DNA of 1,086 nucleotides from NCBI RefSeq assembly GCF_003334815.1, contig NZ_QOWO01000107.1. One strand, written 5' to 3'. Below the pieces are notes generated by a model that had not been told where the DNA came from, did no database searches, and worked only from the letters and a program-made list of their open reading frames with translations. Both the position numbers and the translations under genes were made by a program. The DNA comes from Escherichia coli (GTDB taxonomy: Bacteria > Pseudomonadota > Gammaproteobacteria > Enterobacterales > Enterobacteriaceae). Shown one piece after another: positions 1 through 1,004 of the stretch (its first letter is position 1; each line of letters starts with the position of its first letter).

Positions 1-68
1 TTCGCCAGGAACGACCGGAACGCGGCATCATGCGGCGTGGGCGTTGTGGTGTTTTTCTTCTTACTCAC
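1..68 (-). CDS. hypothetical protein, 5' end only (continues past the left window edge); N-terminus MSKKKNTTTPTPHDAAFRSFLA...
   Basis: GTG start at 68..66 preceded by GGAGG (77..73) with a 4-nt spacer; the start overlaps the TGA stop (67..65) of the upstream gene as GTGA; frame stays open to the window edge (22 codons); the initiation region and first ~19 codons are homologous to the start of the 65..580 gene. Not in the ORF track because it is truncated by the window. Confidence 0.5.
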   Translation of the reverse strand, partial: MSKKKNTTTPTPHDAAFRSFLA

Positions 69-77
69 GGTTCCTCC
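51..77. repeat. 27-bp direct repeat, copy 1 (gtttttcttcttactcacggttcctcc); on the minus strand this is the SD plus GTG start of the 1..68 gene
   Basis: 25 of 27 nt identical to 563-589; weaker homology continues into both downstream coding regions. Confidence 0.8.
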
Positions 78-580
78 ATCAAATCAGCAGCATCGCAGCA
101 ATCATCGTCCAAATCCCCACAACCAAGAGGACAGCAATTGCGATCAAAGCCGTGACAACAATAGCCACGTTCTGCGTCACGGCGTATTTCTTCTGCAATC
201 TCTTCAGCGGAAAGGTAATCAAACTCCTCACGGGCCAGTTCCAGGACCAGCAGATGTTGTTCTGTCGGCAATGTAGACACAAAATTATCAATAGCAGCAC
301 TCAAACGTCGCTGATATAGCTCATAAACAAGACCACAACGGTGCATTAGTTCTTCGGATAATAGTTCCAGTTTTGAGCGAACGCTGTCAGCATTGAAAGT
401 GACTTCATCAGATGACATCTGAAAATCTTTGTCAGTGTCAAAACAAGACTTCATTTTTATCTCCTGCCCGTCCGGGCCCTGAATGAAAGAAAACCTGTTT
501 CCCTTCTCTGTTTTTTTATGGAACAGGAGGAATCCGGTACCATGCGACATAGACGTCATGATGTTTTTCATCTTGCTCAC
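65..580 (-). CDS. hypothetical acidic protein, 171 aa from GTG at 580 (alternative internal ATG at 454 would give 129 aa); Cys-rich C-terminal tail GYCCHGFDRNCCPLGCGDLDDDCCDAADLMEEP; no family recognised
   Basis: Long open frame (part of the 65..676 track ORF); GGAGG at 589..585 then 4 nt then GTG at 580..578; this initiation region is duplicated at the next gene; CTG/GAA/CGT-rich codon usage; roughly 34 Asp+Glu against 19 Lys+Arg by my count; stop TGA at 67..65. The track start at 676 is rejected: it has no SD and overlaps the upstream gene. Confidence 0.6.
   Translation of the reverse strand: MSKMKNIMTSMSHGTGFLLFHKKTEKGNRFSFIQGPDGQEIKMKSCFDTDKDFQMSSDEVTFNADSVRSKLELLSEELMHRCGLVYELYQRRLSAAIDNFVSTLPTEQHLLVLELAREEFDYLSAEEIAEEIRRDAERGYCCHGFDRNCCPLGCGDLDDDCCDAADLMEEP
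73..77 (-). promoter_or_regulatory. Shine-Dalgarno (GGAGG) for the 1..68 gene, embedded in the last codons (M-E-E-P) of the upstream gene
   Basis: GGAGG then AACC then GTG, with the GTG overlapping the upstream TGA as GTGA. Confidence 0.55.
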
Positions 581-589
581 GGTTCCTCC
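563..589. repeat. 27-bp direct repeat, copy 2 (gtttttcatcttgctcacggttcctcc); on the minus strand this is the SD plus GTG start of the 65..580 gene
   Basis: 25 of 27 nt identical to 51-77; differences at repeat positions 8 and 13. Confidence 0.8.
585..589 (-). promoter_or_regulatory. Shine-Dalgarno (GGAGG) for the 65..580 gene
   Basis: GGAGG then AACC then GTG; sits inside the duplicated 27-bp element. Confidence 0.55.
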
Positions 590-644
590 TGGTAAAGTAC
601 CTGAACATATCCTGCCACCTGCACAGACAGACGGCAGGGGGTAA

Positions 645-911
645 TCAGTGGCAGACCCGTTCAATTTCAAGCGCACGGAGCAGGTGCCCCCACTCGCTGA
701 CTTTCATGGCGGGGATACGCACCCGCTTCCGCTCACTGCAGCGTCTGGCGATATGACCGCCCATCGCCAGGACGTCCGGGTTAATCTCATCCGGTGCCAG
801 TTCCTGGCGTCTGAAGCGGGTATGGCGGTGCAGGGGTTTGTTCTCCCGCAGGCACTCTTCACGCAGACGCTTTACATATTCAGCCGTTGCAAAGATAATT
901 GATGGTCTCAT
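645..911 (-). CDS. hypothetical small basic protein, 88 aa (MRPSIIFATAEYVKRLREECLRENKPLHRHTRFRRQ...ERVCH); Arg-rich, possibly nucleic-acid binding; identity unknown
   Basis: ATG at 911..909 preceded by GGAG (923..920) with an 8-nt spacer; stop TGA at 647..645; Leu codons are CTG-dominated on this strand (6 of 8) versus CTC-dominated on the mirror plus-strand ORF; about 15 Arg + 4 Lys against 12 Asp/Glu. The track extends this ORF to 1007 (120 aa), but the extension crosses the terminator hairpin and uses rare AGG/ATA/CGG codons. Confidence 0.5.
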   Translation of the reverse strand: MRPSIIFATAEYVKRLREECLRENKPLHRHTRFRRQELAPDEINPDVLAMGGHIARRCSERKRVRIPAMKVSEWGHLLRALEIERVCH

Positions 912-919
912 GGCATAAT
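911..919 (+). promoter_or_regulatory. candidate extended -10 element (TGgCATAAT) on the plus strand
   Basis: TG at 911-912, one nt, then CATAAT at 914-919 (5/6 match to TATAAT); no convincing -35. A transcript from about 926 would end at the 979-1004 terminator. Sequence pattern only. Confidence 0.2.
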
Positions 920-923
920 CTCC
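920..923 (-). promoter_or_regulatory. Shine-Dalgarno (GGAG) for the 645..911 gene
   Basis: GGAG then 8 nt then ATG at 911..909. Confidence 0.45.
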
Positions 924-942
924 ATAGTTCGTGAATGAGATG

Positions 943-969
943 CCGGACTTCCGTACGGGGAAGCGCCGG
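943..969. promoter_or_regulatory. imperfect palindrome / inverted repeat upstream of the small basic gene; candidate operator or RNA stem
   Basis: CCGG-a-CTTCC-GTACGG-GGAAG-cg-CCGG: outer CCGG (943-946 / 966-969) and inner CTTCC (948-952) / GGAAG (959-963) arms around a GTAC core; lies 32-68 bp upstream of the ATG at 911. Confidence 0.3.
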
Positions 970-978
970 CAGAGAAAG

Positions 979-1004
979 GCAGGGTTTATCGCCCTGCTTT
1001 TTTT
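979..1004 (+). terminator. intrinsic (rho-independent) terminator hairpin, strongest on the plus strand; possibly bidirectional
   Basis: Stem GCAGGG (979-984) / CCCTGC (992-997), 7-nt loop TTTATCG, then T7 run (998-1004); an A-rich tract upstream (973-977) could extend the stem. On the minus strand the same hairpin is followed by the weaker tract CTTTCTCT. Confidence 0.6.

Follow-up and report, generated by a model that had tools for sequence, protein, structure and literature searches.

The window (the whole stretch of 1,086 nucleotides that was analysed) carries at positions 611-638, on its minus strand, a hairpin that homologue comparison shows to be a real structure, formed above the level expected by chance. 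The hairpin is judged real because it is conserved in homologues, and not from the statistics of the single window, which taken alone are suggestive of a hairpin beyond chance. Its context suggests that it is most likely an ordinary stabilising element inside an mRNA and not a terminator; the more specific proposal, that it is an intercistronic stem-loop in a leading-region operon and serves as a barrier to exonucleases, is one on which we find ourselves evenly divided. The hairpin by itself is a small and ordinary-looking intercistronic element, and its value lies in its context. It forms the 3' edge of a conserved module, comprising an antisense RNA, a small basic gene and the hairpin, that is present in thousands of IncI and IncF resistance plasmids and sits in the region expressed first after conjugative entry.

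The hairpin and its plasmid setting

The window corresponds to positions 8001-9086 of L001. It lies between ardA and oriT in the leading region of a plasmid of the IncI complex, and is identical to E. coli IncI-complex plasmids, with 1431 matching records. In E. coli genomes 1462 of the 1477 match places were on plasmids (median one per genome); the locus is flanked by ardA and nikA/oriT in pE2863-1, and its copy in pESBL occupies 65,546-67,817, with the hairpin at 66,347-66,374. In order, ardA is followed by a gene of 144 aa, the basic gene of 88 aa (911-645), the acidic gene of 129 aa (454-65) and rpn (from 68). Each of them lies on the minus strand and points to oriT, and thus the transferred strand would be the plus strand of the window, which is their template. 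The same arrangement is found in the IncI1 plasmid pESBL, in which ssDNA promoters drive zygotically induced operons (PMC12672017). The features of the window are as follows.

1-68, minus strand: start of rpn (Rpn-family nuclease), GTG at 68-66, which lies directly 3' of the hairpin in short-form plasmids
65-454, minus strand: acidic Cys-rich gene, 129 aa, pI 4.2, its stop overlapping the rpn GTG (GTGA, 65-68)
520-589, minus strand: relic rpn 5' end, SD GGAGG at 589-585 and GTG at 580-578, forming one arm of a direct repeat
611-638, minus strand: hairpin with a 12-bp stem (nine Watson-Crick and three G-U pairs) and a CUGU tetraloop at 623-626
645-911, minus strand: basic gene, 88 aa, pI 10.2, TGA at 647-645, homologue of IncF pHK01_035
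871-899, plus strand: promoter-like TTTACA-17 nt-GATAAT within the basic gene (codons 5-14), directed away from it, the putative promoter of the antisense RNA
906-1004, plus strand: predicted AS-pc01-like antisense RNA, length about 99 nt, spanning the basic gene's 5' UTR, its SD and its start codon

The sequence-only reading of this DNA had described an inverted repeat, CCTGCC (611-616) and GGCAGG (633-638) around a 16-nt spacer, which would form a stem-loop in the minus-strand mRNA. The coordinates were confirmed in the window sequence, and the mRNA-sense stem-loop is upheld, as it is the predicted minimum free energy structure of the surrounding 76 nt (-27.5 kcal/mol, z -1.85). The 6-bp arms, however, require correction, as the hexamers form just the lowest part of a helix whose real arms are 12 bp. 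Read from 638 to 611 on the minus strand, the helix is 5'-CCUGCCGUCUGU-CUGU-GCAGGUGGCAGG-3', with 12 uninterrupted pairs and a first base located 6 nt past the TGA of the basic gene. On the plus strand at 611-638 the three G-U pairs become C.A mismatches, and the repeat search returned 11 nt at 82%. The energy of the 76-nt fold was equalled by 13 of 200 shuffles. As a simple hairpin, 611-638 had an energy of -16.9 kcal/mol, a value attained by a hairpin in 3.7% of whole-window shuffles compared with 0.1% of shuffles of the 64-nt gap; when the whole window was dinucleotide-shuffled, a 12-pair stem arose somewhere, on one strand or the other, in 7.3% of cases. In the comparison with shuffled controls that had been suggested as a check, therefore, the hairpin is superior to the gap shuffles (P=0.001). 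A search of the window with the Rfam 15 covariance models, up to E=10, gave no match over 611-638.

The hairpin had been placed in a 64-bp gap separating the basic gene from the acidic gene, a placement that was only partly correct; the hairpin does lie in the gap, whereas the far end of the gap at 580 is the GTG of the relic rpn start. This relic belongs to a 70-nt direct repeat (520-589 versus 8-77, 76% identity) that bounds a 512-bp cassette containing the acidic gene. Approximately 1000 E. coli plasmids, the majority of those matching, lack the 512-bp cassette and have the order basic gene, hairpin, rpn. The acidic gene does not begin at GTG 580, as had been proposed, and its RefSeq start is ATG 454. 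An acidic gene extending from GTG 580 was considered and rejected; this reading frame is open in the window variant only, and in pESBL and L003 the GTG is not in frame. Because GTG 580 is a relic, and in view of the short-form plasmids, the hairpin is best placed at the 3' end of the basic gene and not, as first described, in the leader of the acidic gene. A second hairpin, weaker than the first, was predicted in the 76-nt fold at 577-606 (minus strand), with the relic rpn SD and GTG among its paired bases. On short-form plasmids, pairing of CUCAC with GUGAG could span the real rpn start codon.

The basic protein had no Pfam, NCBIfam or PHROG family, and comparison of its sequence profile with the PDB gave a chance-level match only. 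A weak match to HU-CCDC81 (PF14908, E=7e-4) was evident in one or two family members, and an AF2 model built on a 13-sequence alignment displayed three helices at low confidence (pLDDT 58). Relatives with 41-50% identity occur in Lelliottia, Serratia, Mixta, Erwinia, Intestinirhabdus, Enterobacter and IncF. These distant relatives came from a genome scan and tblastn, and the word-based protein search returned close IncI relatives, among many frameshifted assemblies. By tblastn the family is present, unannotated, in >5000 plasmids, chiefly IncF plasmids of E. coli and Klebsiella; in pESBL there was no second copy of the basic gene beside M.EcoGIX. The acidic protein, which has a Cys-rich C terminus (CCHGFDRNCCPLGCGDLDDDCC), had no family in NCBIfam, PHROGs or Pfam. 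The GTGA overlap of its gene with rpn suggests that the two are translationally coupled, and the acidic protein may be an Rpn partner or an anti-defence protein. The 144-aa gene 5' of the basic gene (L002 1965-2399) carries the label 'post-segregation killing protein PndC' in a single record and is called 'hypothetical' elsewhere, and the PndC label looks unreliable.

Conservation of the pairing and its strand

A hairpin follows the stop codon in every homologue group (IncI, IncF, Serratia, Lelliottia, Mixta, Erwinia and Enterobacter), and across 30 loci from IncI, IncF and a further five genera the first base of its GCCG core is 10-12 nt past the T of the TGA. The gene on the 3' side of the hairpin differs between these groups: IncI has rpn, IncF has DUF3560, and the remaining groups have an N-6 methylase. 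The hairpin thus travels with the basic gene. Among IncI-type plasmids there are eight hairpin variants, in which every change in the lower nine pairs keeps the pairing; pair 2-27 is C-G, U-G or U-A, pair 7-22 is G-U or G-C, and pair 8-21 (U8.G21) is U-G in all variants. The top three pairs are less well kept, with pair 12-17 either U-G or C-G, pair 10-19 replaced by A.A in L009 and C.A in L017/18, and two mismatches within the top three pairs of pESI (L016). The IncI-type loops are CUGU, GAAA and GCAG, and the 20 nt 3' of the stem are variable at many positions. The forms adopted by distant homologues include GCCGCCCC-UGAC-GGGGCGGC, GCCGCUCC-UUAC-GGGGCGGC and GCCGCCCC-GCGA-GGGGCGGC.

Across an alignment of 18 distinct variants, 83.8% of the cells were paired compared with 74.2% in column shuffles, none of 500 shuffles reaching the observed value, and in a control in which the pairing partner was slid by 1-3 columns the paired fraction was 37-52%. 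Double changes occur at two core pairs (C-G/U-A and C-G/G-C) and wobble changes at three, nine different loops of 3-6 nt are present, and the arm sequence GCCG[CU]C...G[CU]GGC is kept beyond the needs of pairing. The covariation in homologues that had been put forward as a further check was thus observed, pairing being conserved with compensatory changes, and the alignment indicates a stable structure conserved by selection on pairing. In L034, a K. pneumoniae IncF plasmid, the hairpin is partly deleted at 1725-1773 (GCCGCCCCGCAGGCGCAAC), and so is dispensable at least there. A metagenome pattern scan returned mostly chance matches, with about 15 true copies and no new stem variants; the substitutions in four rare variants left the stem untouched, falling in the 3' flank in three cases and immediately 5' of the stem in the fourth.

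Among the eight IncI-type wobble-pair variants, the sense RNA is more stable than the antisense RNA by 1.5-6.4 kcal/mol in six, the margin being 1.4 kcal/mol in L017/18 and 0.1 in pESI (L016). With DNA parameters the T-strand and sense-strand values were -7.4 versus -8.7 for the window and -9.7 versus -11.1 for L005. The invariant G-C pairs, which make up most of the conserved stem, are uninformative on strand, and the sense-strand C.A mismatches of pESI and L017, which would be G.T on the T-strand, point in the opposite direction. Over a wider series of leading-region hairpins (see below), interior G.U and A.C numbered 6 versus 4 once the antisense-RNA terminators were set aside, which does not decide the strand for the class; the same count flags those terminators as belonging to the antisense strand, as expected. 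On these folding models an RNA-sense reading of the 611-638 hairpin is favoured.

Proposed role of the hairpin in the leading-region operon

The view that the hairpin is not a terminator, advanced from the missing U-tract, was borne out. The tail of the stem is AUAUGUUC, and the terminator scan, which demands at least five U in the eight nt directly 3' of the stem, makes no call at the hairpin. The GC-rich stem-loop of a terminator is present (12 pairs, -16.9 kcal/mol), and a conserved U-run 3' of the stem was not found in the homologues (tails AACAAACG, AACUGCAG and ACAGGAGA); the eight nt 3' of the stem contain 2-4 U in IncI forms and 0-1 in IncF and L015, in which the tails are AACAAACG and ACAGGAGA, respectively. 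A canonical terminator is found after rpn, at L001 7107-7131 on the minus strand (AAAGCCCGG-CAAAAUC-CCGGGCUUU plus UUUG), in the form of a hairpin and UUUUUG. Judged by its sequence, 611-638 is no canonical intrinsic terminator. The rpn terminator falls inside an ORF annotated 'hypothetical protein' (6921-7142), which may, for that reason, be spurious.

The hairpin is one of a series. When short gaps between co-oriented genes were scanned on the sense strand, a hairpin of -10.8 kcal/mol or lower was present in all nine gaps of the pESBL leading region compared with four of 19 gaps elsewhere (Fisher p=1e-4). The leading-region hairpins of pESBL had a median of -16.5 kcal/mol and began 4-23 nt past the stop codon, and each of the nine was at P<=0.027 against shuffles of its own gap. 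Plasmid F has such a hairpin in six of its seven leading-region gaps, and the IncF locus L030 in three of three. The homologous hairpins of F and pESBL differ in their loops, by a C-to-U wobble and by a swap of A-U to G-C. The series, seen in L037 (pESBL, 3471-18085), L038 (F, 5785-13986) and L001 (4500-17086), consists of GC-rich hairpins with no U-tract, located 3-23 nt past a stop codon, several of which share CCGCCCC/GGGGCGG arms. Rfam, at E<=0.01 on L001 and F, identified no family on the other leading-region hairpins, and in the leading-region literature that was found, long ssDNA-promoter hairpins are discussed while the post-gene series is not described. It is possible, if somewhat doubtful, that the series reflects an undescribed design rule of IncI and IncF plasmids, in which a U-less GC-rich hairpin follows every cistron of the zygotic operons as an adaptation to the entry phase. 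Such a rule could serve to obtain maximal protein from a short burst of transcripts off ssDNA promoters or, alternatively, could help RNA off its single-stranded template or structure the T-strand. If these hairpins determine how long early anti-defence and SOS-inhibition transcripts last, or how they are translated, the hairpins would be part of plasmid establishment in new hosts.

The genes flanking the hairpin are co-oriented, the promoter scan revealed no promoter-like site on the window's minus strand, nor any promoter belonging to the downstream genes themselves, and a terminator is present only after rpn. Because the downstream genes lack a promoter and the terminator follows only rpn, we infer that transcription would pass through the hairpin into the downstream genes. 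The hairpin, once in the mRNA, would block 3'->5' exonucleases. After an endonucleolytic cut it may thus provide a protective 3' end for the upstream cistron, and the same cut may leave a hairpin-structured 5' end on the downstream cistron, so that, in an operon that is zygotically induced and only briefly transcribed, every cistron would last longer. The hairpins have a position linked to the stop codon, precede the next SD, lie within operons, carry no U-tract and follow unrelated genes, all of which points to a general role at the level of mRNA; that this role is stabilisation, and not another function of the mRNA, is what we infer by analogy.

It could be argued that the hairpin is a leaky intrinsic terminator or pause site that attenuates read-through into a potentially harmful gene, as nucleases or methylases are encoded downstream. 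The GC-rich stem immediately 3' of the stop codon, the presence of some U in IncI tails (AUAUGUUC, AUGUGUUC and AUACGUUC) and the tails AUUUAAGG or UAUUCACU of several distant homologues would fit such a role. The stem, however, fails the terminator scan, its U content is not conserved (0-1 in eight nt in IncF and L015), a proper U-run terminator is present at the end of the operon, and the same U-less hairpins follow ssb, DUF905, a parB-like gene, klcA and ardA, whose downstream genes, such as psiB, are known to be co-induced (PMC12672017). We therefore regard attenuation as unlikely. A similarly low probability is assigned to the possibility that the element acts as DNA, the transferred plus strand folding into a hairpin on entry and influencing how SSB or RecA loads, how the complementary strand is made or how nucleases attack. 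The region does enter the recipient as ssDNA, and large T-strand hairpins in it are functional, as exemplified by the leading-region ssDNA promoters (PMC12672017); a T-strand hairpin has also been described as a roadblock to conversion (bioRxiv 10.64898/2026.01.09.698686). Moreover, perfect G-C palindromes, which fold as well on one strand as on the other, make up most of the series, and the C.A mismatches of pESI and L017 are converted to G.T on the T-strand. Set against these observations are the two to three A.C mismatches that weaken the T-strand version of 611-638, the fixation of U8.G21 in all IncI variants, and the 10-12 nt spacing from the stop codon, ahead of the next SD, which suits an mRNA element; stems of 8-12 bp are, furthermore, small compared with promoter hairpins selected below -75 kcal/mol.

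There is a slim chance that the hairpin, as RNA or folded DNA, is a protein site, for which the upstream basic protein would be the candidate ligand in autoregulation or in regulating the gene that follows. Hairpin and basic gene are passed on together while the downstream gene changes, the arms (GCCG[CU]C...G[CU]GGC) are conserved past the needs of pairing, and the protein is basic (pI 10.2), with the weak HU-like match (PF14908, E=7e-4) in one or two members. Similar hairpins, however, follow unrelated genes, for which a gene-specific partner is unneeded, and the basic protein itself has no confident family or fold (AF2 pLDDT 58). A spaced double-stranded DNA operator for a dimeric protein was also considered and rejected; the loop, which sets the arm spacing, is 3-6 nt and free in sequence. 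Likewise held at a slim chance would be a translational insulator, in which the hairpin keeps the next SD unpaired and uncouples the cistrons, favouring fast translation rather than RNA stability. Leading regions are reported to be adapted for translational efficiency (preprint 10.1101/2025.04.03.647016), and the next SD lies 3-12 nt past the stem in most members of the series; in the IncI form, however, the SD is 21 nt away, and in the window that SD is the one of the relic start. Finally, the hairpin may have no function of its own, being a leftover of gene-cassette shuffling or a linked neutral palindrome. Gene order is lost immediately 3' of the hairpin (rpn, DUF3560 or methylase), the 512-bp cassette has been gained or lost just downstream, and the hairpin is partly lost in L034. 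Against this, the distance to the stop codon is fixed down to approximately 42% protein identity while loops and flanks are free, and every gap in pESBL's leading region has a hairpin versus four of 19 elsewhere, making the absence of function very improbable.

A putative mRNA-stabilising stem-loop of this kind has precedents in the REP hairpins of malEFG and the puf operon hairpins of Rhodobacter, which are intercistronic stabilising stem-loops. The plasmid element resembles them in being a GC-rich stem-loop of high stability (about -17 to -24 kcal/mol), probably intercistronic, located after a stop codon and without a U-tract, with a conserved structure and a variable loop. It differs in that it is only 28 nt, is confined to plasmid leading regions and occurs in series after almost every cistron. 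It is not a REP/BIME repeat, since 1462 of the 1477 places are plasmid-borne with a median of one per genome, in contrast with many chromosomal copies; the sequence of 611-638 is also dissimilar to the REP consensus. With intrinsic terminators it shares a GC-rich hairpin directly 3' of a stop codon, but it lacks their conserved U-run and is probably internal to the operon, the real terminator lying after rpn. An RNase III site consists of about two helical turns (~20 bp) of dsRNA, a length that exceeds the stem of 12 bp here and of 8-10 bp in most homologues. The hairpins Frpo1-3, ssi1-3 and classes 1-3 (Wen et al. 2025) occupy the same neighbourhood that enters as ssDNA. The Frpo/ssi-type ssDNA promoters are long T-strand stem-loops (below -75 kcal/mol) that rebuild the -35 and -10 elements upstream of operons (PMC12672017). 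In contrast, 611-638 is a 28-nt hairpin with a 12-bp stem that folds better on the RNA-sense strand and lies downstream of a gene; the scan found no promoter hexamers at 611-638, and its T-strand fold is the weaker one, which sets it apart from the ssDNA promoters.

The antisense RNA at the 5' end of the basic gene

The opposite end of the basic gene is overlapped by the promoter-like sequence at 871-899 and the predicted antisense RNA at 906-1004, an arrangement that matches AS-pc01 (Rfam RF02875), which is described as 'antisense to pHK01_035'. AS-pc01 shares with this locus the gene family and the 5' antisense layout, and is an element separate from the 3' hairpin at 611-638. The window aligned with RF02875 over its full length (1-99) at 15.5 bits and E=8.9, which is below the gathering threshold of 79 bits, while IncF loci at the same position scored 105 and 98 bits. 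Homology of 906-1004 to AS-pc01 is therefore proposed because the location is the same, the promoter layout is conserved, and so are two stem-loops. Indeed the promoter hexamers and their 17-nt spacing are kept in the IncF, Serratia and Mixta homologues, and the anti-SD and anti-start sequences and the two stem-loops are kept in all groups, the stem-loops with compensatory changes. The terminator scan placed the end of the antisense unit at a strong terminator at 977-1004 on the plus strand (GGCAGGG-TTTATC-GCCCTGC followed by T7). Since the template strand of the antisense RNA is made only after ss-to-ds conversion, the RNA could switch the basic gene off after establishment. The invariant N-terminal S-I and V of the basic protein coincide with the promoter hexamers.
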